Shown: piece by piece, positions 2,593 to 60,536 of the stretch
How the letters are laid out: each line of letters opens with the position of its first letter
Position numbering within the stretch: the first letter of the stretch is position 1
Position numbers and translations under genes: made by a program
The notes under the pieces: model-generated
What the model was told of the DNA's origin: nothing
Databases searched by the model: none
The model's input: the letters and a program-made list of their open reading frames with translations, nothing else
From: Azolla caroliniana
Lineage: Eukaryota > Plantae > Polypodiophyta
Length of the DNA stretch: 64,000 bases
Direction: 5' to 3'
Assembly (NCBI GenBank): GCA_043228905.1
Contig: JBHGNT010000002.1
Location: 19,344,001-19,408,000 of the forward strand

Positions 2593-5500
2593 CTATGTAA
2601 TCGGCGGGGGAAACAACCATTTCGGTGGCTGAAAATGCCAATAAGGAGTAGTGTACCTGGATGTCACAAATGGAGTAGTTGTCCAGATAATAAGAAACTC
2701 ATGTCGTTGAGCAATTTTAGCATTAGAATCTCCCACTATACCATCCCATTGACCCTTCAAAGCATGAACTATCTCTAACCAAATATTTGAAATCACTTCA
2801 GCAGGTGGTGTTTTCAGATTATGGAAAACGAGAGAACACCGAGCTTTCCAAATGTGATAGACAGTGGTACTACTCAATATCTCCCATATTGGCTGAACTT
2901 CCTTCCTTACTCCTGAAAACTGTAATGACATCAGTGATAATGTACGAACACTTCCATTTTTAGTGTAAAACCCATGGTCCATAGATTCGATGCCATAATG
3001 GAACACATCACGGGCAAGTGATGTCCAAACGACCATGCCCCAAGTGAGAACCAACGGGGGAAAATAATTAGCGAAAATTCTAAGGATCCGTTGCCATATC
3101 TGTTGAGAATCAATGCATTCCCATAAACAATGTTTTTGAGTTTCCGTTTGTAAATGACATCGAGTACAACATGAAGACACTCCCATCCTATGCAACCATG
3201 TGCCAACCGGCAACGCCTTGTGTACAACTAACCACTGTACATGTAATATTTTGTGTTGCTGTTTTCTTGCCCATAAGATAGCCCAGAATTTTGCAAGGAA
3301 TTGGGGAGTAATACCTTGTTGATTCCAATATTGAGATGCAGCTGGTACCACATCACGTGTATCTGAAAGTACATGTCTTCCCAACTGTACAGAATATTGG
3401 AAAAAATTGAACTTGTTACCCGTGTAAGGATCTGTCCAATGATAGTCAATTGGGTCCCAATCTAATCTGAATACCGGTCTTTTAGCTAACACCCACAGCT
3501 TCCAATGTGTCCTTATTTCCTCTATCATTGGATCAATATACCATTTACGATCGGCATATCCAATTATCCTTATCTTGTGCTCAATGGCATAGGGGTAATC
3601 TATCACCATTTCCCCGGACTGAGACAATTGATTTGTTTCATCCACCTCAAACAACCGGTATGTCTTATCATTTGAATAACCCTTAACAGCCAAGAGTACT
3701 TCCAATCTTGAAAAAACCCCAATCCATCTATGGTTAGTGTTATTGGGTGGTATGGGTTGTCTACTCATAGCTTCTTGAATTTGTTGGTACATTATATGTC
3801 CGCCAGGCATATTACGTAAGATTTCTTTTTGTTCTTCCAACGATCGCGATAAAAATTCTTTCCAAGTCTGAACTGTTTTCGCGGGACCTTCTGTCATTTT
3901 TCCCCACGATAACCATTGTCTAGAACCCAACACAAAACCATCTGATGTTGTAAACAACGGGTTCCAAACTATCTTTTGTCTGAGATACTCAAGATAATGT
4001 TTGGGGTTCGGTTTATTGCGAAGCAAACCAGGTAGTACTTGTTTCCATGCTGCAAATAATGTCCTAATAAATTTGTCTTCCCATCTAGTGGCTGAAGGTA
4101 CTCGGAAATTTTCCCTAAATATCCAATTCACATCCTTCGACCAGGGAGCACCTAAGCGAGGAAAGCAATCTGAGCAACGGTCAAGCAATAATACTTTCCA
4201 TATCTCTTGCCCCGGCATAAATCCTCTAACGAGCAACTTACTTAACAATGCTCTTGATTGGTCCACTAGATCAATAATACCTAATCCTCCTTTAGAGCGA
4301 GGTAAGGTAATAACATCCCATTTCACTTTGGACCGAGCATTGCCTTCTGTTTTACCGGACCACAAGAAGTTACGAACCAATCTACGTATTTTCAGAATAC
4401 ATGACTTGGAGAATATCCAACATGACAAAACATACCATGTTGAAGCCAATAAAACCTGATTAGCCACTACAATCCGACCAGCAAAAGATAGCTTGGCTGA
4501 ACTCCATAACAACAACTTTTTCTGCAGTGACAATAGGAGGGGTGCCACTTGATTTTCCATTGAAAGATCAATACCTATCGTACACCCTAAGTATCAAACT
4601 GGACAACCTGATGGTATCCATCGAAATTGCGGGTGTGGACTCCATAGAGGAGGCTCTACATCCCCCACCCAAAATGCAAAGGACTTGTTCCAATTAACCA
4701 GTGCACCCGAAGCCTTACAAAATGTGGATATGGCCAATTCTGTTTTCTGCAGATTTTCCAAATCACCTTTTAAATATAGGGCAGTGTCATCTGCAAATTC
4801 AGCGTCCCTTACTTCTATATGTGAGAATGGGATGCGTATTCTGCGTATACCAATATCACCAGCATTCAAAAAGGAAATCATTGCCTCAGCAAAAAACAGA
4901 AACAAGAAAGGAGCTAAAGGACAACCCTGTCGAACTGATCGAGAAATAGTAAACAAAGGTCCATAATTCCCAACCAGTAAGACTCTGCTTTGTGCCGAAT
5001 TATATAATGAAGAAATACCTTTTATCCATTCTTTCGAGAAACCAAAACGAGCCAGTACACCTTGTAAAAATTCCCAGTCAACACGATCATAAGCTTTCTC
5101 AAAATCAAGCATAACAATGGCCAACTCTTGATTAGATTTGGCTGCCAAGGCAGCAAATTCCCAAAATGTATACACATTATCCAATATGCTCCTTTCCTGA
5201 ATAAATCTTGTTTGCGACGGATGTATAACTATAGGCATTATAGTACCAAGTCTTATACTAAGCGCTTTAGCTAGGATTTTATACACCGTATTCAGTAATG
5301 TAATTGGGCGCCATTTCTTGATGTCCAATGAAGGACCTTCTGATTTAGGGATAAGGTAAATTATTCCTTCTGTAAAATGTGAAGGCATAGTGCCCTCTCG
5401 AAGAATTTGTTGGAATGCTGTACATAAATCTGATTTAAACAAGTCCCAATATTTAATGAAAAATGATGGGGTTAATCCATCCATACCTGGACAACTATTC

Positions 5501-6936
5501 TTAGGCAAAGCTTGGAGTGCTTCACTCAATTCCTCATGAGTAAGAACGTCTTGAAGACCGGCATTCATACCCTGTGTTATTCTTGAACTCAGTTTATTCC
5601 ATACACAAGACCGACTTATTAAATCCTCATCGGAGAATGAAATAGCTGATAGTAGGCTGGAATAGTATCGTGTGGCTATTTCTCTCATCACTTTAGGGTC
5701 AGATGAGATGGTCCCATTCTCATCTTGTAGTTGTTTGATTGAAACCGCATTATGATTGGGTTTCATTGCATGAAAAAATTCAGTTGTACATTTATCACCC
5801 ATTTGGGTCCAACTAGATGCCCTATTATGGTATTGAAATTCTGCACGCTTTTCTAATAGTACAGCAAGTTCTTGTTTTGCTGACCCAATTTTCTCAGCAA
5901 TCCAAGTACAATGTGGATAACGTTCTTGTAATCGTTGTAGAGAAACAAGAGAAGTACGAGACCGTTTCTCCTTTTCTTGGATCATAGAGAACCTCTCCTT
6001 AGATTTACCCCTAAAAAATTATGAAATACATCGTAAGCCATTAGCTACCCGCACCGCCATTGATTCCTGTACAACATCCTTTTGTGACCATAATTGAGCC
6101 ACTTGTAAGGAAAAGCTATTGTCTAACAGCAGATTTTCAGGAATCTTCATATTGGAGAATTCTTTAAGGTTTTGGGTTGATATTGAAAGAATCATTGGAG
6201 CATGATCAGAGAAGGTAGTCCCTGGCATTATATGTATTGTACCAGTTGCTGAAATAAATTTGCCAGATACATAGAATCTATCCAATCGAGCTAAGTTAGT
6301 ACCATTTACACGTCTATCTGATCTTGAAAATAAAAGAGAGGTATTTGTATGAACCATCGAAGGAGCATGCGAAGCATCTAAAATTTGTAAGGAGAACACC
6401 AATTGTTCCCACATTGCTAATTCATGGCCATGTATCGTAGTTGAGCTACCTCCCATTCTATCAATGGGGTCCTCAAGCATATTGAAGTCACCAGCGATAC
6501 ACCAATGATCAAGGGGAGGCAGATGCTCTAATAATTCTTTCCAAAATTGTTGCCTAGCAGAAGCAGTATTAGGAGCATATATATTCAAGAGTCCCCATAT
6601 AATCTCCCCCTCTTGCATAATAACATATTGAGCCCTTCCAGGAATGATCACTTGTTTTTGTATAATGGATGGAATCCACCTCTGAGAAATAGCCATACAA
6701 ACCCCACCACGGACTTCCGTGTTGCCTATCGCGGGGGACCAAAACATGTCCCAATTTCCAGATAAAATAGAACCATACCGAGAAATTCTAAAAGTATTTA
6801 AATGATGTTCTTGTATTAAAAGAAAGTCGAGGGATCCACCCACTATGCATTTGTTAATTTCTTGACGGAGACGATACTTGTATCGTCTATATAAGGGGCC
6901 CCCTAACCCCTGAACATTCCATGACATCACTCGCAT
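2593..6936 (-). pseudogene. L1 ORF2 (APE endonuclease, reverse transcriptase, zf-RVT) with two in-frame stops
   Basis: Motifs SWNVQG, GDFN, RLDRFY, SDH; WRPITLLN, LDFEKAYD, RQGCPLAP, FADD; CTRC...ETQKHCLWEC. All three ORF pieces share one frame, with stops at 6019-6021 and 4594-4596. Confidence 0.95.
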
Positions 6937-8736
6937 TTAAGGGAACTTAGGTTGCTGTGATGCCATTTTCATGTTTTTCGCTAACGGCTCAAGATTGGCC
7001 TCACTACCATCTTGTTCACCACTTTTCGATTGTAAAGGTATCGTATCGCGTACCATTCTATAATGATGATGAGCTTTAGCCAATATTTGACCTTCCGATA
7101 GTCCATCTTCATGGATATAGGTATATCCACAATTTGGAAGGATCTCAGCATCTAAGGATACCACCACTTGCCTTCGCCCCATCACATCAGACACTGGCAA
7201 GAGTTGTATAGTTGCTGCCTCTAGTCCCCTTAATAATACTTCCCCAAAATTGTCACAATTAACATATTTTGCGAAGTGTAGTGTTTGTTGTCTAATAACC
7301 AATCTAACATCCGCTGCCACCCATGTTTGTTTAGCATATCCACAAAAAGGGAAAGAAAATCCTACAAAAGATTGCATAGTCTTGAAAAGAACATGAACAC
7401 GTATTGATGCACTGCCATTATCAACTATGTCTCCCAAAAATTTCAAAAACTCAAACCCATATGTGGCATTCCATCGATTGATTGCAAAATCACTAGTACT
7501 TTCTACTTGAGAATTTATCGGGATTGTGCGAATGAAGTTCGCATTTAACCCTCTCAAGCTAGACGAACGTTTTGTAGATCTGTGAAGGTTTCACGATACA
7601 TTACTCAAGTTCAAATGTTGTTTACTTGATTCCATTGTTTTGCTCTGAGTGGCCATAACAAGATTATTAACTGATTCAGTCCCTTCTCTATTAGGAGTAG
7701 ATTGTTCAAAAACATTACTAATTTGGCATATCTGAACATCATTTTGAGACAAAGAGTTATCTAGTTCCTGTATGGCATCATAACGGCCTATACTTACGTG
7801 AGCACCCTTAGATTCAATGCATTTATTGGGTATTGAGTGCCGTTTTTCAATTGGTTTCCATATCTCATCCTCGAATGTTTGGATATTTTTCCCTTTTTCA
7901 TCCTTGGATGGCTGAACATTTTTCCCCTTTCCTCTTCCTCCACCTAAATGAGATTGTTGCTGCTTATCCAGATTAACATGGTTAACGTCTGTATACACGT
8001 TATTTGTACCATTCTGGGGTCTAACCCCGTTCTTCTTTTTTGGGCAATCTTTCAAAACATGGCCTTGCTGTTTACAATAAAAGCATTGTCCAGGCATACC
8101 TATATACTCCAATTTTTGCATGAATGTCGAGTTCCCGGTAAGCGATGGTAAAAGTACCTGAGTAGGTAAATTTTCTATTGAGGAAACTAGTATTCGAATT
8201 GATGGGTATCCCGTTAATTTCATTCCTATTGTCTCCTCTCGAGGAGGAAGAATCGTGCCGATTCTTGCTGCAATTGATGGGAGTACAGCCATGTATTCCT
8301 TAGGGATTCTTGGGAAAACCACGGAAATCGGGGTCAAACGATGCCCCGAATTCAACATTTCGACGGGATCAAAGCCCGGTTTCCACGGCATAAAACAAGC
8401 TATTGCATTTCGAATGTTAATCGTATTTGCATTCAACATTACCACAACGGATTCAGCGGTATCCAATTCTAAATGATAGAAAGCATGTCCAAGAAATTGC
8501 ACATCGACGATTTTTCCGATCCTATGTTGGAAAGCCGCTTGTAGGAGATCTCTCAAATCTCCTCTATTTGGCCTTAAACCTATAATCCTACACACTATTG
8601 AGTAGGAATGTAGACGACTTACCTCTCTTTTCAATATCTCTTCTTCTTCCGGTGTGAAGACGACAATGAAGGCCGACCGTGGAGGAGTTGTCGGGGGCGC
8701 TGCGTGAGAGTTCCCCTGGTGTACCGTGTCAGCCAT
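6937..8736 (-). pseudogene. L1 ORF1 (DUF4283-like N-terminus, CCHC zinc knuckle, extra C-terminal domain) with one in-frame TGA at 7591-7593
   Basis: Knuckle CFYCKQQGHVLKDC. ORFs 7591-8736 and 6937-7557 are in the same frame and separated only by a single TGA. Confidence 0.85.
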
Positions 8737-9101
8737 CTCTTCCTCTTCGTCTACAGTGATCTGCGCAACATTCTCTTCATCCTTCGTTTTCCTCCGATGG
8801 CAGAAGAGTTAACAGTCCATTTCATATATTTGACGAGCATATTGCTAGTTAAATTGCAGGTTTTTTAACATACACATGTTTTTAAAATCGTTGCAATGTG
8901 TTTTAGCAAAAAGTGGGGGGGGGGGGAGGAAGGAAGGGAGAGAGAGAGAGAGAGAGGTTCTGCCAGCCATGGATGATACTCTATTTTGGGTGCAGAGTGA
9001 GCTCTAAGGCACCCCATAGCCTACCCATGCTCTTTGCCAATCTCTCTAGCAAACAGAGAGAGAGAGAGAGCTTCTCTTTGAATTGGATTCCCTTGAGCGG
9101 C

Positions 9102-22291: not shown

Positions 22292-25132
22292 TTAATATAA
22301 TCTCTTCACAGTGACAGGGAGCCTCTTTACCATCCTTGTTGTTGGAAAGAATATAATTTCATCCTCTTCAGCTGCTTGCCAGCTACAAAACAAACACACA
22401 CACACAGAGCATTTGTTAGCACATGATCATGACTTAAATAAATACCCAAGTTCTTCTTCTTCTTGTTGGTGTTTCTTCACCTGAATTGTGTTGTCAAGTA
22501 GTAAAGGAATATGGAGATTTCGACTCTTGCTAGCTCGTGCCCCGGACAGAATCGTGGCCCGCCCCCGAATGGCGTGAAGAATCTGTTGTTCAAGCTACTC
22601 GTGCTTGGATTATTCACATTGCACCCATTCTAGATCGAATAGTTCGCAATAAAATCAATCGACTGATTAGGATCACATTGGTTTTTGGGTGGATCGAAAT
22701 CAATACGTAAATGAGACACAATTCTTAAAAGTACATCAATAATAGGATCAAATCTTTACATAGCTTGTATAACATAAATTACCGATTACCGATTCGGCCG
22801 ATGATGATAACCACCTCCATGGATTGAATGTATTAGCATCCTTGTAGTTAGCCTCATCAAAATGGACCGCGCGGAACGATGTAAAGACCGTCCATCCTTT
22901 TGGGATTATGAAACCTGGAGCAGAATTTTATGAAAAAACCACACACTGATATCAAATCAATGATTAATACATCTCATTTAACATGTACTAGATTAGTTTG
23001 ACCAAACATGCACTCATTGAGATCGGTATATCTCGAACGAAATTATGCTTAATGCATATTAAGGTTATGGTAATTTAAGCAAATACACACTGATATCCGT
23101 ATATGAAATGCACAATGATTAATACATAATAGGATTAGGTTTGTTTAATTAAACCTGCATTCACTGTCACTAATATAGGTAATTTAAACAAATGAGCCAT
23201 TAATCCACATAAGATTATGTTAATTTGAACAAATGCACACTGATATTGGTACATCAAATGAAAGTTTGAATGATTGATCGGTATGCTCATCTGATATATC
23301 AGGACATCAAACAAATGATTAAATGCATATAAGATTATGTTCATTTGAAACAAAACAGTTTAAAATGCTATGAGTAAGTACCTTGCACCTCGACATCTTG
23401 CAGTGCTTTCCGAAAGACTCCGCCAACAACATTCCCCATTCGAAGTGTCTCGTTAATCACCTGCGAAATGCGGATTGATGGATGAGGCATTCATGAATTG
23501 AGAGACGCAACAAAGAAAGGCCGCTAATCTTAAGGTCACCTACACAATGAGTGAAAGTCATGCAGGATTTGTAGTCACTCCAGCTGATCATCATCTCCTC
23601 CTCGTCATTCTTGCGCCGCTTCATGGCCATATGCTCGGCCTGCGATTAGGGTTTGTCATTTTAGAATTAATATCACAAACAGTAACTTATGCCCCTCTGC
23701 TAATTAGGGTTTGGACATTCAATTGTGTTTTGCCATTCAAAAAAACAACCTGCCTAGTATGTGATGCTGGATAAACAACAGAATAGTTAACCATGTAATC
23801 TAATACCTGCAATTGCTCCAGAGCTTTAGGGCAATCTGCGAGAAACTTGACAGCCAGAGTGATGATGATAGATGTGGTCTCATACCCTGCTACAAGTAGC
23901 GAGATTACCATGTCCACAATCTGCTCATCGCTCATCTTCTTTTCCAGCAGGGCCCCCAGAAGATCATCCCTCGACTCAGTATAGTTCTTCTTCATCCCTG
24001 GCTCGTCATCATCATCATCATCATCATCATCACGAATGCGATTATGACGAGCCATCTCTTCTCGTCGCTTTATGACGAGCTGTTTGATGGACTTCATGAT
24101 TGCAGCACGAGCCTGCAGAGCCTTGTTATATGTGGTACCTGGTAGATTAATGGGGAGCGAGAAGAAGCCATCGATTAAGAGCAGATACTGCTGCCTCAAT
24201 CTCTCCGTCCACAGGCCAGGATCGGCACTCAACAACTGCCTCACACTCAAGTTGAAAGTAATCTGCAACCATCACCAGTCGTTGTTTGTAACCGATCATG
24301 GTCTTTTTATCAACAGGCAAGCAAGCAGGCAGGCAGGCATCCATCCAAGAACACACAGAAAGAGACAATAAAAAGTTTAGGGTTTGGCAGAGCAGAACGA
24401 ACCTTCTTGGCTTCGTCCTGTATGTGGATGACATGAGGATGCATGGGCCATGCCGCCAACACGGAGCGGACATGCGAGTGGATGTCGGACATGAGCCTGC
24501 AGTGCTTGTCTTTTAGGGCAGAGGAGTTGGTGAAGCTCCATGTGAGGCCATGGAGCTGCTTGTGGAGGGGGGCATCATCGGTGATGAGGAGGAGGGAGTT
24601 GGGGCCGAGGAGGCGGCGCAGAGAAGCCGGGTAGCTCGATGCGAACAGCCGGCCCTCGCCTTGCATCACAAACCTATTGAATTCGGGATCCGTGGAGAAC
24701 ACAGTGGGCCGCCCCAGCAGATGAGTCCGGAACACCGCCGATCCGTACCTAGCTTCCCAATGAAAAACAAATCCAAAAAATCCTCAAAAATGCAGGTAAA
24801 ATGCAGGGTTAGGGTTAGGGTTAGGGTTGGAGGTTTTTTTTTACATCCATTTACATACATATAGAAAGGAATTCAGGGCTGCTTGTGAAACTGGGGTGCA
24901 TATTATGATCATTGCAATTGCTCTGAATCAAAGATTTCAAACTTTCGATGCAGGTATCATTACATAATCATTACATACAGAAAGCCAATTCATTCAGGAA
25001 GGTAGGGTTAGGGTTGGAGTTTTTTTTTTACATCCAGTTACATACATATAGAAAGCAATTCAGGGCTGCTTGTGAAACTGGGGAGCATATTATGATCATT
25101 GCAATGCTCTAGAGGTTTTTTTCTTTACATCC

Positions 25133-33787: not shown

Positions 33788-35599
33788 TTCTACACCCTCT
33801 TTTCCTCTTAGTACTAATCTTCATCTCTTAGTACTAATCTCCTCTCTGTCTCAATAATATTCCTGACAGTTTGAACCAATTTTTCTCCTTCCTCCTCTTC
33901 CTTTTATCTTCTTACTTCTCCCTCCCTTCATACTAATCTCTTATTCCTCTTTTCTCTCATACTATGGCCACTGTTAGTACTCAAGAATATTAATCTGTTT
34001 TCTCGGAGTTACAATGCTTGAAAGAGAAGTTTCTCGCACTCGAACAAGAAAATCAATGACTGTTGGGGGATCTTTAACAAATCTCCTTAGAAAAGCAGCA
34101 GACGCAATAACAACATGGGGAACTAGAGGTTACACGTGCAACAACTTGAAGCGACCATTGTAGCATTGCAACAACAAGAACCAAGTACGCAAGGGATTCA
34201 TAAAGAACCCAAGATTGGCTTTCCTATGAAATTCGATGGAACGCGATCATAGTTTAGAGGATTCCTTAATTAGGTATGATTAGTCATTCAAATGCATCCT
34301 TCCCGATATCCCACCGATGCATCATTCGTGGATCTAGTAAGCACGTTGTTAAGTGGCTCAACTTTTGGCATGGTTCGCTCCGTTGTTAGAAAAGGAATCT
34401 CTATTACCAAACAATTTTGAAGAGTTTATAAGTGAGTTTAAAGCCTGTTTTGGAGATACTGATTGCATTAGGACAACAATCAACAAAATTTGACAATTAC
34501 GTCAAGGTGACCGTCCAACCTCTGCATACACTGCAGATTTCTATCTACTCGCCTCCGATGTCCCCTGGGATGACCAAGCATTAAAGGAGGCAGATAAATC
34601 AATAACCGCTAGTACTAATAGTACTAAACTCGAGTCTATCTCTTTGGGTGTGTCCGATAGTCCTAGTAGCCCAAGCCTTTCAAACAAATTTGAAATCCTT
34701 AGTCAAATAGAAGAAGAGTTAAACGATTAAGTTTAGCCAAAATAGGAGCCATTTGGTTGGACAACCCTAGATCTGTGCAGCCCATTAATGGTTTCATTTC
34801 CTCTAAACAAGTTAGCAATGTGTTCTTAGCTCAAGTAATGGTTAGTACTAAAAGTACTCCTCCAGTACATGTCTTAGCACTCTTACATTCCGGAGCCAAC
34901 TCTTGCTTCATGGATAGGAATTTTGCCCAAGCTCATCAGATATCCCTAAGAAAACTTTCTTGCCCAACATCTATAGTTGTTATTGATGGTCGTCCAATTC
35001 TTTTTGAAAATATCGTAGAGGAGTCAGAACCGATTCAAGTTGTCCTAGATAACTTGGTGTGTGTAGTATCATTTAATATAATTAGTAGTCCAGATCATCC
35101 AATTGTCTTGGGGTTACCGTGGTTCGAATTACATAACCCAGACATAGATTAGAGAACAAGAGAAATCCGATATCAACAAATCTGAGGATCTACTCATAAG
35201 ATTGCAACCATTTCGCTACAACAATTGCGTGAGGAAGGACACAAGGAAGCAATGTTCGTCTTCGTTGTATCAGTAAAATCTTCCAACACTACTAAAGATG
35301 AATCCACAGTTCAACTTCCAAAGAAGTATCGTCAGTATGCCAATGTGTTCGATAAGGTACAAGCCAATACGTTTCCTCACCATTGACCATATGATTGTCC
35401 CATTGATTTACAACCGGGAAAAGAGCCGCCATGGGGACCGATCTACAATTTGTCACCAACCGAGCTAGATGTCCTTTGAGCCTATATATAGGAGAATTTG
35501 GCAAACGGTTTCATTCGATATTTGAAATCTCCAACTAGCACACCCATTTCCTTCGTCAAGAAAAAGGATGGATCACTTCGTCTTGTAGTAGACTACCGT

Positions 35600-36763
35600 T
35601 ATCGTAAAGATCCGTCACTACGTGCGGATCGTGAGGCGGAACTGCCGGGGTCCTGGACCGGAAGGATTCAAAGTTTGCACTAGCTTTCGCGAGAAAGAGT
35701 TTAAGATAGATCGAGAGAGAGAGATTGAGATTAAGATTCCAATTTTGAAACAGATTGAGAAAGATTGAAATGGAGAGAGAGATTAAGATTGAACTCTTGA
35801 TTTTAGATTTGAAGAACAAGATATATCATCAATTGGATAACAAATTTTTTATTTATTTTTAAATTCTTGATTCATACATCGCCCCCTTTTGATCTTTTTC
35901 ATCTATTCTTTTATAGATGGCCCCATGCATATGATGCATGTGAGGGTACAATACATGCATATAATGCATGGAATGCATGTGATGCATGTTTGCCATTTGG
36001 TGCTCATGCACTACATGTGATGCATGATAACCATGTCACTCAATCAAGCTATAATATGAGAATTTACATGTAAAACTATAATGGTAGGAAAAACATTCCC
36101 AAGGAAACGACATGGTTTAGTGGTAAGTTTATTGCCTCCTATGTTGGAGGTGTAGGGTTCAAGCCTTGCTTACATCCCCTTTGCATACAAATTATTACTA
36201 GGTTTTTTAGTTTAGATGATTTTGTTTGTTTCACACCGAAACCATCGCGATCAACCTATTCGATCGATCCGTCCATCTGGTCTACATCCGACCCGATGAT
36301 CCGGTCTATCCGGTCCCGTTCCGGTGCCGGTGTCGGTCCTGGTTCACCTGGTTCGGTCGTCGTCCCCGTCGTTCCGGTTCCGGTCCTCCAAAACTATTAC
36401 GAGTACTTAAGCCATAGTTTAGCCCAAGAACATTTTGTGCTCCACACATAGACAAAAAGTAATAAGTTATGGCTCTGCTTATATACTATGGGATCCTGAT
36501 TTGTCCTATCTATGTGGGATATCTCATAGTTTTGTTTTTCTCTTCTTCTTCCCAAACTTCACATTCATATAACTTGACATTTAGTTGTCCGTTCAAATGT
36601 AGTAAAGTACATTACGAAGCTCTTGAAGACCTCCATCTTCTCGTACCAAGATAATCTAAAATAGTATCTTTACTATTATTGTTTCATTTCTTGTGTGAAG
36701 AACCACACTTGATTTTGCACATTCCATGCAGTTTTCACACCGTTGCCGAAAATCTTCATGACA
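35600..36763 (-). mobile_element. Solo LTR (Ylt1-like LTR group) inserted in the chromovirus RT
   Basis: Termini TATCGTAAAGA...TCTTCATGACA. 4-bp TSD CCGT/CCGC. Removing it restores DYRSLNKVTVKNRY. Carries the degenerate U5 motif GGCGGAACTGCCGGGGTCCTGGAC. Confidence 0.75.
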
Positions 36764-38525: not shown

Positions 38526-38814
38526 TGTCCTGATATGGCAAGACTCAAACCCATGACCTTATGTTATATGGATTGAGCTCTTGACCATTAGACTATATAT
38601 TATAATATAAAAAATATTATTTTCATTTAAGTTTTACTATAGAAAATTGATGTATATTCCAAATTTCTCTGGACATTCTAGAACCTTCAGGAGTACTCGA
38701 ACCAAATCGGTTCAAGGCACAAGGCATTATTTCAAACCAAATCGGTTCAATGCCAGTCTTAAGCCTCATAGCCATCCTTGTATATTCTTTTCACATAATA
38801 TATCGTTGTCATCA

Positions 38815-39603: not shown

Positions 39604-40817
39604 ACATCATGGTCTCCCCGATAGTATCATTAGCGATCGTGGACCTCAGTTCGTTTCGAAATTCTGGAAGCACCTCTTTAAAATGCTCAAGGTAACTTGT
39701 AACCTCTCCTCCGGTTACCACCCGCAAACAGACGGACAAGCAGAACTAACAAATCAAACGCTGGAAAAGTATCTTCGGTGTTTCCTAAGATATCATCAAG
39801 ATGATTGGATGGATATTCTCCACTTCGCCGAATTGGGGCTGAATTTGCGTATAATAACTCTATCCACTCATCGACTAAGGTTACACAATTTTATGCTTAT
39901 ACGGACTATCATCCCCGGTGGTGTGTATTAGAAACTCTGGAGTTACCCACGCAAGATACATGCGAATTTATCTACTCATTTACAACAAGGTCAACAAACA
40001 CACAAGGATTATGCGGATCGTCATCGGCTTCCATCCAATTTTAACATTGGAGATCGAGTATGGCTATTACGACGACACATCAAGACTACTCGCCCATGAG
40101 GTAAATTGGATTATTGGCGATTAGGTCCTTTTAGTATTATCGGAAAAATTAATGATGTCGCTTTTCGTCTTGATCTACCGCCGCAACTACGAATACATCC
40201 GATATTTCATAGTTCTATTCTAGAACCCTATCAGGACAACACTATCCCAGGTCATATCAAACCACCTCCATCCCCGATTGAACTTGAGGATGGACATGAG
40301 TACGAGGTTGCCGCCATCCTCGATTCCAAGATTGTTCGCAACAAGCTCTACTATTTGGTTGATTGGCTAGGATATAATCCCAGCGAGCCTACTTGGGAAC
40401 CAATAGAGAATGTGACCAATGCTCATGCTCTTCTTGAAGATTTCCATCATAAATATCCAGATAAACTGGGTCCCCAATCCAAAATGACTCGTAACACTTG
40501 TTAGTCGTTTTAAAGGGGGGATAATGTCATGCTATGGCAAGATTCAAACCCATGATCTTATGTTACATTGGTTGAGCCCTTACCATTAGACTATACATTG
40601 TAATACAAAAGATATTATTTTCCTTTATTATTTCACTATAGAAAATTGATGTATATTCCAGATTTCTCTAGAACATTCTAGAAACTTCAGAGTACTCCTG
40701 AAAACACTATATAAGGAGGCACAAGGCATTATTTTGAACCAAATCGGTTCAACACTAGTCTTAAGCCTCCTAGCTATCCTTGTATATTCTTTCTACATAA
40801 TATATCTTTTGTCATCA

Positions 40818-40848
<31 letters not shown>

Positions 40849-41595
40849 TTGGGTTGTTGAATACATGCTTAAGGTTCAAAAAAGCCCCTCACATTGACTT
40901 CCTAGAATTGCATGGGAAGCAAGCAAAAAGATCCAAAAGATGCATAAAAGCAAAATTTTGTGTTCCGGTTGGATGCAAGATTTAGAAAAATGGTTTGGTA
41001 GATGGGATGCAAGACACTTGCTTCATGATGTGTCACTAGATTCCTCTGTAAATGACGCCTTTTTGCAATGCCAATGTATCATGACATGGGACAAATGTGG
41101 TGGCTCACACTTCACACATTATACTACAAATGTTGTACCTAACTACAAAACCATATTCTTCGCGGAACGGGGAAGCCATACACATCGATACATGTTAGAG
41201 CCCATCCCGATATCTGCCATTCAAACCATTGCTTCCATGCGACTTAGCTCACACGCATTAAGATGTGAGATGGGGCGTTGGGGCACAAGTGATGAGAATG
41301 GCCGACTATGCACACTTTGCCCTAAACAAGTTCGAGAGTCTGAGTATCACACTTTGATACAATGCTCTGCCTTCGATCATATTCGACCATGCTTTCCACA
41401 TCTCTTCGATCGAGCCCAATCCTTGCACGAATTTCACTCACAACCATGATGTGCACTCTCGATTGCAACATTCATTGGTAAAGTTTTTGAACATCGAGAG
41501 TCGCTACTTACCTTCACACGTATCACGTGAAATGTAATATTTTTGGTCTCATAGGTCATATTTGACCTCCGAAGACGATAATATAATCTATCTAT
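40849..41595 (+). mobile_element. 5'-truncated non-LTR element (RTE-X-like 3' end) inserted in the (TC)n tract of the LTR
   Basis: RLSSHALRCEMGRW...RLCTLC...ESEYHTLIQC C-terminal motif. Short (ATCT)n tail merging into (TC)n. The LTR sequence resumes afterwards. Confidence 0.8.
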
Positions 41596-48248: not shown

Positions 48249-51200
48249 AGACCATAAGAAGATGCACCTTAATCTACAAGAGCTTACAGTAAGCAGAAGG
48301 TGGTCGGGGGTTTGAGACTTGTTTGATCTATGAGAGGTCAAACAAATGTTAATGGGGTAAACGAGAAGAACTCAAATGGATGGATATAAATATTCACATT
48401 TTGCTCAAACCAATCACTTGAGGATAAGGAGTACATGCAAGAAGAAAAAGGCAAGGTGCATGCCGATTTTTATTTGCATGAATAGCCCTAGAGAATGTTA
48501 GTCTATTAATAATGTTGAGAATCAAACTCAACTTCTCTAAGGTGTGAATAGACTTTAAGAATATTAAAGTGTGTGAACACCCCACTACTATGTAACATAA
48601 CTAATGTGTCATAAAACTTAACTTCTATGATCATACATAGTTAGTAGGTAAGTAGTTAAGTCCCCACCTCTTTCTTGAGAGGTAGTAAGAGTGTAGGGAG
48701 AAGGTGACCATATAAGCACGTTCTCCCCTCCTTTGTAGTAGTTGGTTGTTATTTTCTTGTGAATATAGTTTACTTGTATTTTGTCTATTATGTGTTGACT
48801 ATTTCTTACACACACACACACACACACCCACCCACCCCTATATTCCGTTGCACAAAATCACACTTGATTCGCTACATGGTATTATAGCAATTTGGTAGCT
48901 TGATTTAAGCCCATTTCTGTGTGTTGTGCTTGCACCGACGTACAAAGAAGAACCTGTCGATTGCTATCGTAGGGACCCTATATAGTTTGTATCACAAAGA
49001 AGAAGAAAACCTATTCAAATCAGTCGCCCATCATGAATACCCAGATGGGCAGCTCCCTTCCTAGTGAAAAGTTGGATAGAAACAATTTTGCATCTTGGGA
49101 ATACAAGATGCACCAATACCTTGTTGGCCACGGTTATTGGAGCTACATTGAGGGAACACAAGAAACTCAAACCAACCCAACACACGCTGTCGCGTTGCTA
49201 CGCACGTGCGTGGAGAAGGGCGGGACCACGGGGGTCTTGGACTAAGGAGTAGAGGAGAAGGAGGAGAGCGGAAAGGCAACGGACCCTCTTACACACGCAC
49301 TGACACGAGAGCACATAAGAATCACAATCCAACAACACAACAAAACGAGACGACCAGAAGTCTGAGTATATAAACACGTATGTATATTAATATAAGTATA
49401 AATATCGAGACAGTTACAACTAACAGGATGGCAAGGCGAACACCGAAGCATGTTCACTCACGCAAACAGAAGAGCGAGATGGAGATTCTGCCGGAAGCAC
49501 ACGGGCGTTCCACGGGACAGAATCAGCCTCCCGAGAGCCTGCGCAAAGAAGGCTACGGAGAATGACAGAGAAGAAGAGCTTGGTCCCAGTCCGACAGCAC
49601 TTCGTTCCCTCTAGCGCGCGATCCCTTTTCTCTCCCCGTCTCCCTCTCTTTTATAGCTCAAGGAGGGAGGCCGTCTCACCCGTTTACATCACATTAACTC
49701 TCTGTCCTTTCAGGCAGAGATACTCCTCGATTTCCCTTACAGAATATTGCTACCTAGGATTTAACCTTTGTGCCTACCCATCCACCGTACAACAAGGGAC
49801 GTGCCCACGTGAAAGGGCCGGTTCACACACACTATACACGGTTTGCGCCTAGGGACGGTTCTCTTCACGACATCCGCCCCCACCTAACCGCGCATCCACT
49901 GGTATGCGCCAAAATTGGGTTCCTACGGGAGAAAACTGATCCTTGCTTTTATTCCTCGTTTACCGGTTCATCCTCCGCCTCGGGCTGCTTGTCGTCGTTG
50001 TTCATGTCCCCTTGCTCCGGCTCCCCGTCGTGCCGTTTCTTGAACGCTTTGATCCTTTTCCCCGCTACTGGTATCGCCATTCTCGTACCGTCGAGTTCTG
50101 CGAGATGGTACATCCCATTGCCGTTGGCACTTGTTACTACTTAAAGCCCGAACCACCTCCTCGCAAACTTCTGCGTGGCCCTGTGCTGATTGTTGAGGCT
50201 GCTGTCGTAGACTAGCACCTAGTCGCCTTCCTCGATCTTCCTTGGCCGGAGCCGGTGTGTTTGGTCGAACCGGGCTTTGCTCCTTGTCCTCGCTACCCGA
50301 AGTTTCTCCGCGGCCCGCTCTACGTCCTCCGGCCTCCGCTCGAGCTGTCGAATCCGCGCCGCCAACAGTTCCTCCCGGCTCATCTCATCCCTCCAGTCCA
50401 CCGTGGCCCACGAGGAGATCGTTCGCTCTGTTGGCATGATCGGCTTCTGTCCGAACATCAGCTCGGTCGGCATGAACCCGGTTACCGAACTGTGCGTAGT
50501 CCGGTCCGCCCACAAGGCATAAGGTAGCAGCCGTGGCTAGTCCCCGACTCGGCCTCCGCATGCCCGTACTAGCGCTTTGACAATTGGCCCGTGTCTGCGC
50601 TCCACCTTCCCGTTCGCCTCTGGATTGTATGCTGTGGTGAGCGAAAGTTTGACTCCTAGCCGGCCGAACAGCTCTTCGGCCTCTTCTGCATCCAACTCTC
50701 CACAGTCAGCCACGATCTTCCCTACGCACCCGTATTGGCATACTACGTCCTCAATCAAAAACCGGCACACGGCTGCCGTCGTCTTGTTCTGCAGGGCTCG
50801 GCCTTCAACCTGGTTCGTTAGATCCTCCCGAGCCAGCACTAGATACCGCATCTGTCCTACCCCCATTGGCATCGTCACCAAATCCACCATCCACTTGAAG
50901 TGGACGGTCGGAGGGTAGGTCGGGTGAAGCTCGTCCCGATGTCGGATCATGGAGTGCACCTGACAGCTTTCGCAAGTCGTCACGAACCGATGCACGTCCC
51001 GGTATAGTCCCGGCCACCAGTACTTCCCCTTTAGCTTTTCGAATGTGGCCCACGTTCCACGGTGTCCAGCCCACGGGCTATCGTGGTACGCCGCCAGCAA
51101 ATCCTCCTGTTCCTCCTTCTTCGCCACCACTCGGAGCGGGATGCCGTTCCTCTTCTTCGGGTGCTTCCAGATGTATCCGTCCCGAAGAAAGAATCGGTAG

Positions 51201-57170: not shown

Positions 57171-58589
57171 AATATGTCGCGTTGCTACGTGCGTGCATGG
57201 AGAAGGGCGGGACCACGGGGGTCTTGGACTAAGGAGTAGAGGAGAAGGAGGAGAGCAGAAAGGCAACAGACCCTCTTACACACGCACTGACACGGGAGCA
57301 CATAAGAATCACAATCCAACAACACAGCAAAACGAGACGACCAGAAGTCCGAGTATATAAACACGTATGTATATTAATATAAGTATAAATATCGAGACGG
57401 CTACAACTAACAGGACGGCAAGGCGAACACACCGAAGCATGTTCACTCACGCAAAAAAAGAGCGAGATGGAGATTCTACCGGAAGCACACGGGCGTTCCA
57501 CGGGACAGAATCAGCCTCCCGAGAGCCTGCGCAAAGAAGGCTATGGAGAATGACAGAGAAGAAGAGCTTGGTCCCAGTCTGACAGCACTTCGTTCCCTCT
57601 AGCGCGCGATCCCTTTTCTCTCCCCGTCTCCTTCTCTTTTATAGCTCAAGGAGGGAGGCCGTCTCACCCGTTTACATCACATTAACTCTCTGTCCTTTCG
57701 GGCAGAGATACTCCTCGATTTCCCTTACAGAATATTGCTACCTAAGATTTAACCTTTGTGCCTACCCATCCACCGTACAACAAGGGACGTGCCCACGTGA
57801 AAGGGCCGGTTCACACACACTATACACGGTTTGCGCCTGGGGACGGTTCTCTTCACGACAACGCCGATTACCTAGCATGGGAGCAAGCGGCAAGCCGTTT
57901 GTTGTATTGCATGACATCATACGTTCATGATCACGTGCTTGGCTATATCTGAGAGGCTAAGATGTTGAAGGAAGCTTGGGGGAACCTCAAGAAGATTTTC
58001 GTGGCCAACACAACTGTATGTAAACTTCAACTTTGTCAAGGGTTAAATAACATCCAACAAAGGGACATGTCGATCGCAAGCTAAACCTTGAAGATCAAGG
58101 AGTTGTGTGACTCCCTCGGCATGATCAATATTAACATTGTCGATGATGAAATGGTGTAAATATGCCTCGGCGGCCTAGCACCCCCTTTCGGCATGATGAG
58201 ATCGGTTGTCCTCGCAAGGGAGAATCCTCCCTCCTTCTTCGATATCTAGTCGATATTACGGGTCGAAGAAAATCACGTCCGATCAAGGAGCACCGGCTCA
58301 GAAGCGCACATGATCTACTCGCATTCAGATGGAGGAAGAGGACATGATAATGCAAGAAGAGGTTGAATTGGCCAAGGACAATGAGGACGAAGTTTGATCC
58401 ATGAAAACAATTCCCACTACCGACAAAATGGTGGACATGCATGAGGAATGTTCGGCAGAAAGGGGAGCCACCATGCCGGACCAAGCCTACAAAACAACTC
58501 TATTGAATGTGGATATTGTGGGAAATTCGGCCATTATGAGGAAGAGCGCCAAAAGAAGAAGAGTGAGTCGACAATTCATACTTCTCGGG

Positions 58590-59235
58590 CGGCAACTTGC
58601 TCAACCATCACCCATCGAGTTGGAGTCTGGCAATGTGTATGAAGGTGAAGAAATCCTCGACTCCAAGTTTCTATGTCGAAAACTTTATTATTTGGTACAT
58701 TGGAAAGGATACCTGATATCTGAATCTACTTGGAAACCTCACCTCCATTTGAGGATTTCCATCTTCGTTATCCACACAAGCTTGCGCCGCCTGGAAGTCG
58801 GCGCTAAACAGGGGGGATAATGTCACGGACATGACAACGGTCGTGTCAAGATCTGAACTCGTGATCTCTTGAGTTATAATCGAGTGTTATGTGTTAACCA
58901 ACATGCCCAATATATAGTCATATGCACAATTGTTTCTTGTAGCTTTAAGATAGCATCCAAGCATAATTGCTCCATTGTATTATTCACATTTGGCACATGC
59001 ATGTGTACATACATGCTCTAGTGTATCAGATGCATGCAACAAGCATGGATGCCGCTTGGTATAAATATTTGAGTTCACCTTGAATGGATAGAAGGTGAAC
59101 AACACCAGTTAATGATACTAGCTCCTTAACTTGTCAATCGTGTCTTGCTTTTCAATAGTGTCTTTGTAGCGCTTTTAGGCTTGTCGATCGCATCCTTGTA
59201 GTATTCTTGTAGCTCAGATTCTTCTGTCCTTAACA
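58590..59235 (+). mobile_element. Chromovirus 3' end: chromodomain, PPT and LTR (58821-59235)
   Basis: YEGEEILDSK...YYLVHWKGY...STWKP. PPT AGGGGGGATAA, then TGTCAC...TTAACA. Confidence 0.85.
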
Positions 59236-60155
59236 GAGGGCTTCGCATTGGGCAGTGGCGGATGACATGGCCGGGGGTACCACAATAGAGGCAGAGGCCA
59301 TTGTCACGTCCATGTTGTTGTTGGGCATTAGTTAATGGTTGGAACCGAGCACGGTCGATCTCCATTGGGGCATGGGGATCGACCTCCATCTGGGTATGAG
59401 TATCATTGGAGGATGGCAACCGTGGCGTGGTTGGTGAAACTGGTACGTGTGACCTTGTGATGTGAGCGTTGTGGGAGGAAACTGAAATCCTTGAGTCTTG
59501 ACATCGTTTTGGAGGCCTCGACGAAAATGGTGGCGTAAGGCTAGGTCATCCCAGTTGACATCACACGCGATTTGACAAACTCTGAAGCATAGACGGAGGC
59601 TAGACGAGAGTCTTGTTATAGGGAATAGAGCTTCGTGAGTGCCATTCATCGCTGGTATGTCTCTCCAAATGTGGCTTCAAGCTTTGCAAGGAAGGCAAGA
59701 AAGTTTTCTAAGAGTGGGGATGAGGTTTTGATCAATGGCACAAACCATGCTTGTGCCGGTCCGGAGAGAAGTGTGCCAAAGAGGCCGACCCAAGAGAAAT
59801 CTCTAGCATAATGTTGGGGTTGTAAACCGATGATAAGACGAATTTGGTTGATGAAACCGTGAAGATGCGCCCTCAAGCTGTTGAATTTGTCGGCTAGGTT
59901 GATGCTAGGTTCGAGAACATATGGATGGGAAGAGGAAGGGGTTGGGCTATGTGCTAATGGAGGGTGAGGCTCAATGGGTGGGGGTTGTTAGATGTGCCAT
60001 TTTGAAGCTCTTGTAAAGATCCATGAAGGATTTCATTTTCTAGTTGAAGTTGTTCCAAGGCTGCCATTACTTGGTTTAAGTTGTTGATAGAGTCAAACAT
60101 GGTAGCAAGAAGAATGAAGGTGAACAAACTATCATGGATGAGTAGACGTGGTTAA

Positions 60156-60196
<41 letters not shown>

Positions 60197-60536
60197 AAGA
60201 AAGAGAGAGAGAATATAGACAAAAGAACAAGAACTGATATTATGCTTCCATAACTGGTGTTGTTCACCTTCATTGTAATCAAGTTGCACCCAAGTATTTA
60301 TACAAGAATGTGGAGGTATGCATGTAAGCTAGGAAACTTCTAGAGAGTGCATGACGATGCATTCTCTAGAAGTTTCTTGAAAGTTCTAGTGATTAATTTA
60401 TGTAATAAGTTGAATCTTATACAATACAATAATGTATAGATGGATGTAGCTCAATTGGTAAGGTTGCCCAATAAGACCAAGAGGTCATGGGTTCAACCCC
60501 CTACATATCATCGTGGCATCCTACCTAACTATGACA
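59236..60536 (-). mobile_element. Chromovirus 5' end: LTR (60130-60536) and gag remnant
   Basis: LTR TGTCAT...ATGATA. Gag GTLLSGPAQAWF, PMEID, CLYCGTPGHVIRHCP. Shares GAAGGTGAACAACACCAGTTA with the 58821 LTR. Confidence 0.85.
60440..60510 (+). other. tRNA-like (Pol III A/B box) cassette inside a chromovirus LTR, antisense to the element
   Basis: A box TAGCTCAATTGG (60447), variable-loop-like GAGGTC, B box GGTTCAACCC (60490). Spacing is tRNA-like but the stems are degenerate. Confidence 0.65.

Follow-up and report, generated by a model that had tools for sequence, protein, structure and literature searches.

Chromovirus LTRs in this genome begin with a tRNA-derived module, which contains an A box and a B box, is oriented antisense to the element, and is conserved between families in its boxes and in little else. 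Four such modules are found in the 64-kb window, by which we mean the whole stretch of DNA that was analyzed. The elements that carry them prime reverse transcription from their own RNA, and one of the families (B) shares its module with a repeat found outside of LTRs. Our tentative reading, with a probability of about 0.45, is that an outward-pointing A-box/B-box module has been captured and is kept as a putative DNA site for TFIIIC (and probably TFIIIB), which would serve the Pol II promoter of the element in active copies. The boxes themselves are very probably under selection, and we consider it fairly likely that this selection acts at the DNA level. We infer that it operates via TFIIIC binding and that the Pol II promoter benefits.

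tRNA-derived modules at the start of chromovirus LTRs

We trained an HMM on 11 tRNA genes from the same genome, and it gave five matches of at least 5 bits in the 64-kb window and none in the reversed window. Four of the matches (15.9, 10.5, 10.2, and 9.3 bits) are the cassettes named in the initial annotation, which had proposed a tRNA origin for them; this origin is borne out, and their A-box and B-box strings were found at the positions given there. The four copies had been assigned to two families but represent three LTR families (A twice, B, and C; see Table 1). None of them is a working tRNA gene, a possibility which we rejected: ARAGORN reported no tRNA in the window or in any of 27 LTR loci, Rfam searches at E values up to 5-10 returned no tRNA match, and a cloverleaf fold is absent from every cassette copy tested, the stems being decayed and the anticodon arm lost.

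The fifth match (36109-36172) lies inside a repeat unrelated to the named LTRs. This 1.16 kb TG...CA repeat (35597-36762) has terminal inverted repeats of ~15 nt and 4-bp TSDs, and its internal A-box/B-box unit is perfect in several copies. None of the 11 other copies seen has coding flanks of its own, and the repeat may be a solo LTR or a MITE. The window also holds a gypsy element that is not a chromovirus (DUF4100, RT, and integrase; 49188-49870 and 57175-57860, reverse strand), and its LTRs, an internal negative control, have no match to the tRNA HMM. Further residents of the reverse strand are a LINE (2593-8808), whose endonuclease, RT, and zf-RVT domains share a single frame interrupted by stops, and a cytochrome P450 exon (23687-24271).

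Table 1. Positions in the window of the chromovirus LTRs, their tRNA-derived cassettes, and the elements of self-priming
Feature	Family	Position	Strand	Remarks
5' LTR of Tcn1-like chromovirus	B	60130..60536	-	TGTCA ... degenerate TGACA
Decayed gag region	B		-	follows the 5' LTR
tRNA-derived cassette	B	60438..60520	+	antisense to element
A box TAGCTCAATTGG	B	60447..60458	+	12-nt form, 9/9 consensus positions
tRNA positions 44-47 (AGGT)	B	60482..60485	+	upstream of B box
B box GGTTCAACCC	B	60490..60499	+	
TATA-like box of LTR	B	60297..60303	-	putative Pol II promoter
Self-primer, 11 nt	B	60260..60270	-	complementary to PBS; predicted 5' end of genomic RNA
Self-primer inverted repeat	B	60260-60290		
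PBS	B	60117..60129	-	complementary to R of the same element rather than to the 3' end of a tRNA
3' LTR	A	40525..40850	+	interrupted by another insertion near 40850
PPT	A	40515-40524		chromodomain just upstream of 3' LTR
tRNA-derived cassette	A	40533..40595	-	A box 40583-40593; B box 40541-40550 (C56 mutated)
tRNA-derived cassette in nested LTR copy	A	38536..38600	-	LTR start near 38526; A box 38585-38595; B box 38542-38551
PBS	A	33869..33880	+	behind U3-less 5' LTR remnant; complementary to family-A self-primer
Self-primer	A	40741-40752		
Self-primer inverted repeat	A	40727-40752		
3' LTR	C	58821..59235	+	PPT 58811-58820; chromodomain upstream
Self-primer	C	59092-59102		
Self-primer inverted repeat	C	59068-59102		
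tRNA-derived cassette	C	58844..58900	-	weaker A box, TGGTTAA 58894-58900; B box 58850-58859; longer spacing, G18-T54 = 42 nt

A PPT+TGTCA pattern matched 2,476 times, compared to 17 matches for a control pattern. Among 100 listed places on one contig, 70 LTRs were sampled in a non-random manner (the first 30, then 40 favoring rarer PPT variants), and about ten families can be distinguished among these PPT-anchored LTRs. On the antisense strand, a strict B box, GTTCRANNC, is present in 48/70 LTRs and is combined with TGG 35-44 nt upstream in 44/70; when at most one mismatch is allowed, B box and D-loop TGG are found in 58/70. Three control segments gave 0, 0, and 0 strict matches, and 4, 5, and 0 at one mismatch. 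For 21 representative copies, the antisense strand of the first 140 nt of the LTR was scored with the tRNA HMM, and it outscored all 100 dinucleotide shuffles in 19; of the other two, one was equaled by a single shuffle and one had no match. The sense strand of the same 140 nt scored in 1/21 and the next 140 nt, on either strand, in 0/21.

The module is antisense to the element in all scoring families, so that the fixed orientation claimed initially stands; the fixed position does not, T54 being located 14-71 nt inside the LTR edge. The distance G18-T54 is either 35-37 or 42-44 nt, and the shorter, tRNA-gene-like spacing applies to 14/18 modules. The D-loop GG lies ~120-215 bp from the Pol II TATA box in the families measured. 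The tRNA-derived sequence is carried in both LTRs, with conservation centered on the boxes, and the 5' LTR has a strict B box in 14/16 regions with two LTRs. A recent SINE insertion was rejected as an explanation, given that the module occurs in 58/70 LTRs and lacks a TSD of its own: the flanks of three copies of the family-B cassette show only 4-nt chance repeats. A SINE inserted with its own TSD into some copies only would have refuted the initial reading; the cassette is instead an LTR part in most copies of nearly all families sampled.

Several LTRs deviate from this pattern. The B box is broken in the sub-lineage F2c, which has spread (4/70 copies), and carries T56 in F9. On contigs from a close relative, one C-like LTR (L151) has no module and three LTRs (L162, L180, L181) retain only the B half. 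By eye, the LTR of Selaginella SM-Tcn1 shows no module. Among distant relatives from metagenomes (25-44% identity, 16/37 loci), most of which lack a readable 3' LTR, no match to the tRNA HMM was found at an LTR start, and a single 4.3-bit fragment was located elsewhere. Broken and deleted boxes, LTRs without the module, and SM-Tcn1 indicate that the module is common and kept, but not indispensable.

Host elements and self-priming

The host elements encode a chromodomain behind the integrase (Pfam Chromo above cut-off in 4/4 proteins from families A, B, and C) and a Ty3/gypsy RT (RVT_1, E=2.8e-27; best PDB match, Ty3 RT, E=8.6e-33). They look close to SM-Tcn1 when RT and chromodomain are set beside it by eye, and may be referred to as Tcn1-like chromoviruses. 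Judging by the taxonomic range in which Tcn1 elements occur (PMC6317226), the 523 Mb genome is likely that of a non-seed plant. A tree of the chromodomain region is divided into two clades (100/100 split, ~0.6 changes per site between them), with family B nested inside clade II; the module is present in both clades. The elements are 5.3-5.9 kb long and have gag-pol as well as their own TATA box and self-primer.

Twenty regions around 3' LTRs were fetched, and a second LTR was seen in 16. Matching 5-bp TSDs are found in 8 of the 20, full LTR pairs with at least 98.8% identity in 8, and an uninterrupted pol frame of >1,100 aa in 6. The intact pol frames, together with near-identical LTR pairs and TSDs, indicate that the families are coding and have been active recently. 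As a side observation, tandem 354-bp duplications in L125-L127 join the B-box region of the module to the integrase tail, and these are likely products of template switching.

A stretch of 11-13 nt that is complementary to the PBS is located 31-33 nt past the TATA box in 12/16 two-LTR regions. This self-primer covaries in sequence with the PBS between families (assessed by eye for B and C), and in all families checked the PBS pairs with the R region and not with a tRNA 3' end. Two copies of family F1 (L349, L350) have a 5' LTR with the order U3, primer, 2 nt, and inverted U5, and these are likely fossil intermediates of self-priming (primer plus strong-stop). Based on the covariation and the fossil intermediates, we agree with the initial annotation that these protein-coding chromoviruses do without a tRNA primer. 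Self-priming makes the module dispensable as a primer, and a role as primer, primer partner, or PBS was rejected because the PBS pairs with the R region of the element itself.

Self-priming of Tcn1 has been predicted (PMC6317226). For plant Tcn1-like elements, the accessible literature offers predictions only, and the fossil copies would be direct evidence from a genome that priming proceeds without a tRNA. The accessible text on SM-Tcn1 reports no evidence for self-priming (PMC2864245), and in supplement S3 of that paper the PBS has, by eye, a 15-nt complement in the LTR at the position of the self-primer. The self-primer of families A, B, C, and F5 belongs to an inverted repeat, in which it makes up the 3' arm and the 5' arm is found just upstream of the predicted start. 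This repeat might hide the second copy of the primer, which resides in R of the 3' LTR.

Conservation between families and origin of the module

Families were compared over 12 lineages, 11 from this genome and one from a contig of the relative. At fourfold-degenerate RT sites, families A, F1, F2, and F3 are identical at 5/30 to 14/39 positions, which is chance level. The lineages are related and the following counts are thus not independent: G53, T54, T55, and R57 of the B box are kept in 12/12 lineages and C56, A58, and C61 in 11/12; outside of these, G46-T47 is kept in 12/12, Y60 in 12/12, and R59 in 10/12, compared to 4/12 for C62 and 1/12 for C63. The A box agrees with its consensus at 8-9 of 9 positions in 8/12 lineages and at 6-7 of 9 in the other four, and most clade-I families have lost its G10. 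Mean identity over 66 pairs is 0.87 at box positions, a value inflated by anchoring on the boxes, and 0.33 at non-box positions of the module. When the 12 lineages were aligned without reference to the tRNA, hardly anything stood out besides the B box, positions 46-47, the D-loop word, and the LTR terminus. A plain 5-mer census was not above its shuffle null.

What is retained is not an RNA fold, since the T stem is reduced to the pair 53:61 (Watson-Crick in 17/18), formed by two B-box bases, and since family F3 lacks the tRNA 3' end; pairs 50:64 and 49:65 are mismatched in 12/18. The contacts of yeast TFIIIC include +47, and binding or transcription changes when positions +44 to +47 are mutated; the B box drives TFIIIC binding and the A box positions TFIIIB, according to the accessible text of PMC11724288. 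Considering these contacts together with the conservation pattern, the kept bases are more in line with the footprint of TFIIIC than with the fold of a tRNA or with pairing to a single tRNA.

The proposal that the A and B boxes are better conserved than the rest of U3 thus holds between families only. Within families no excess constraint was detected (internal/terminal changes 6/26 vs. 350/1042, p = 0.54), in a test that has low power because most changes arise after insertion. The B-box CpG is decayed in 43% of the 58 copies of family A (other CpGs, 30-54%) and in 41% of the 30 copies of family C (other CpGs, 32-54%). It decays like other CpGs, which indicates that most inserted, old copies are not shielded from methylation.

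A B-like module outside any LTR led to a dispersed SINE-like repeat of ~200-230 bp, which resides in (GA)n tracts and consists of two convergent tRNA-derived units, often in tandem (L323-L344); one copy sits in L036, a family-A LTR, within its (CT)n tract. The family-B cassette and the head of this repeat have a mean identity of 80% (20 x 17 copies; best, 87%), which falls to background (43%) upstream of the cassette, and the other 17 representatives are only 46-61% like the repeat. Family B matches the host tRNA-Lys(CTT) at 31/35 box-flanking positions, compared to 16-23 for the 17 other representatives, and family B and the SINE-like repeat match this tRNA equally (29.6 vs. 29.4 of 35). On the simplest reading, the family-B cassette would be a fresh tRNA-Lys-derived re-capture at the same place and on the same strand as the older module. 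In the older modules, the non-box sequence is scrambled between families. A pattern of B box, GT, and TGG has 16,516 matches genome-wide (control, 544), which fall into LTRs, other repeats, and tRNA genes. We infer that the module stems from the large pool of tRNA-derived repeats in this genome, with at least one re-capture (family B). Long tRNA gene arrays, each of a single isotype, were also observed (G000 C5 17.9-18.0 Mb, C9 17.7-19.7 Mb, and C15 14.96-15.0 Mb), the isotypes being Lys-TTT, Gly-GCC, and Asn-GTT.

Possible roles and comparison with known systems

In our preferred reading, the outer edge of U3 would be occupied by TFIIIC, bound to the B box. With a good A box, TFIIIB would be placed on the inner side, as the module is antisense, and it would face the Pol II TATA box at a distance of ~60-180 bp to form a head-to-head promoter pair. 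A nucleosome-poor, barrier-like edge might thereby be held on copies that are still unmethylated, which would favor transcription of the master copies that found new bursts, and any Pol III read-out would be a by-product. As reverse transcription copies U3 into both LTRs, each new insertion obtains the site at its upstream border.

A more far-reaching version, which we consider doubtful, is that autonomous chromoviruses have turned an outward Pol III promoter, replenished by SINEs, into a portable insulator that binds TFIIIC. Each insertion would then come with a barrier against heterochromatin, in elements that their chromodomain would aim into silent chromatin. If this were true, thousands of sites would reshape the TFIIIC landscape of the host.

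The module could alternatively be a working Pol III promoter, whose product, either a short RNA that runs outward from the 5' LTR or an RNA from the 3' LTR that is antisense to U3, PPT, and chromodomain, would tune copy number or small-RNA silencing. The A box, which is needed for TFIIIB placement and not for TFIIIC binding, is well kept in the 8/12 lineages mentioned above, as would be expected for a promoter. TTTT occurs inside only 2/18 modules, but AAAA is as rare (3/18), so that the scarcity of T-runs is no signal. The sequence between the boxes, which would be transcribed, is scrambled, and no TTTT position after the B box is conserved between or within families: the first TTTT past the B box is 8 to >300 nt away, or is missing from the stretch read. 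The defined antisense transcript suggested at the outset is thus unsupported so far, and we regard a Pol III product as unlikely.

We judge a role in the genomic RNA, whose U3 would anneal to the T and D arms of a host tRNA and so aid packaging, dimerization, or strand transfer, to be quite unlikely. Ty3 offers a precedent: according to the accessible texts, its U3 pairs with tRNAiMet over 12 + 11 nt, in the T and D arms, and does so in a place and orientation matching those of the module (PMC5371799, PMC11381356). A tRNA-Lys3-like U3-R sequence is likewise reported for HIV-1. The T-arm block could form helices of 9-20 nt with some host tRNA, which are thermodynamically possible, and the conservation of Y60 and R59 would agree with pairing. 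However, the bipartite PBS of Ty3 pairs with one tRNA, which is also its primer, whereas priming is tRNA-free here and no single tRNA fits; the best partners differ by family within a tRNA set that is incomplete (initiator and Ala tRNAs are missing). G53 never drifts to A, whereas G52 and G51 do (3/12 each), and C61 is retained with loss of C62-C63; a B box explains both better than a duplex does.

The module might instead be a neutral passenger, with heads of common SINEs being picked up, or an old one carried along, and conservation reflecting recent exchange or sites for Pol II factors. TAACCA resembles a MYB core. The abundance of box-like matches, many of them in non-LTR repeats, agrees with this, as do the cassette that family B has in common with the SINE-like repeat, the lack of excess constraint within families, and the existence of module-less and half-module LTRs. 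It is nevertheless improbable, as the same LTR end, orientation, and box-only conservation recur in both clades despite saturated neutral sites; random capture would not favor one place and strand, and 17/18 representatives have low similarity to the single repeat tested. Steering of integration, with the boxes tethering Pol III factors to cDNA ends or the LTR being a landing pad for Pol III-targeting elements, is very improbable: the F3 B box comes as near as 7 nt to the LTR end, but 0/21 LTR representatives match any of 108 tRNA-gene loci (299 kb, overlapping), and insertions at a constant spacing inside the A box were not seen in a non-systematic look at individual copies.

According to the accessible texts, SM-Tcn1, an example of the Tcn1 clade/Tf1-sushi chromoviruses (Novikova 2010, PMC2864245; Neumann 2019, PMC6317226), resembles the present elements in having a chromodomain plus SH3_Tf2-1 after the integrase, 5-bp TSDs, a length of ~5.7 kb, self-priming, and the same motif following the self-primer (PMC2864245). 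Its LTR has, by eye, tandem repeats in place of the module (PMC2864245), and tRNA-like or Pol III features are not mentioned in the accessible portions of either paper. Our literature search, which covered mainly open-access papers, turned up no account of LTRs of autonomous chromoviruses with an antisense A/B-box module, so that a prior mention is possible.

The TRIMp3 group, consisting of Cassandra (5S-derived), Helenus (tRNA-derived), and Ajax (Kojima 2024, PMC10886601; Maiwald et al. 10.1101/2023.07.14.548913), shares, as far as the accessible texts describe it, small-RNA-derived sequence in both LTRs, conservation centered on Pol III boxes, the lack of a functional tRNA, and SINE insertion into an LTR as proposed origin. 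In contrast to the self-priming coding elements of 5.3-5.9 kb described here, TRIMp3 elements are non-coding, mostly <1 kb, and have tRNA-complementary PBSs. Their Pol III promoter transcribes the element (shown for Cassandra, otherwise proposed), whereas our module points away from the genomic RNA. Identity with Helenus was thus rejected, as the present elements are coding, long, and self-priming, with an antisense module. Partial tRNA similarity in other Repbase LTRs is noted by Kojima 2024, who in the accessible text followed up TRIMs only (PMC10886601). Our results show that Pol III modules are captured not only by tiny TRIMs but also by coding elements, where the orientation is reversed, and they document that a promoter cassette has been exchanged between an LTR and a SINE-like repeat.

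Chromodomain retrotransposons raise the question of how they remain transcribed once they have inserted into repressive chromatin, to which a self-carried TFIIIC site would, if real, be a concrete answer. TFIIIC sites of tDNAs, ETC loci, and SINEs have barrier function. As far as described in the accessible text of PMC11724288, the module resembles these insulators in having a B box with an upstream extension, a looser A box, and a methylation-sensitive B-box CpG; it differs from them in being a putative TFIIIC site that is a fixed part of the LTR of an autonomous element.
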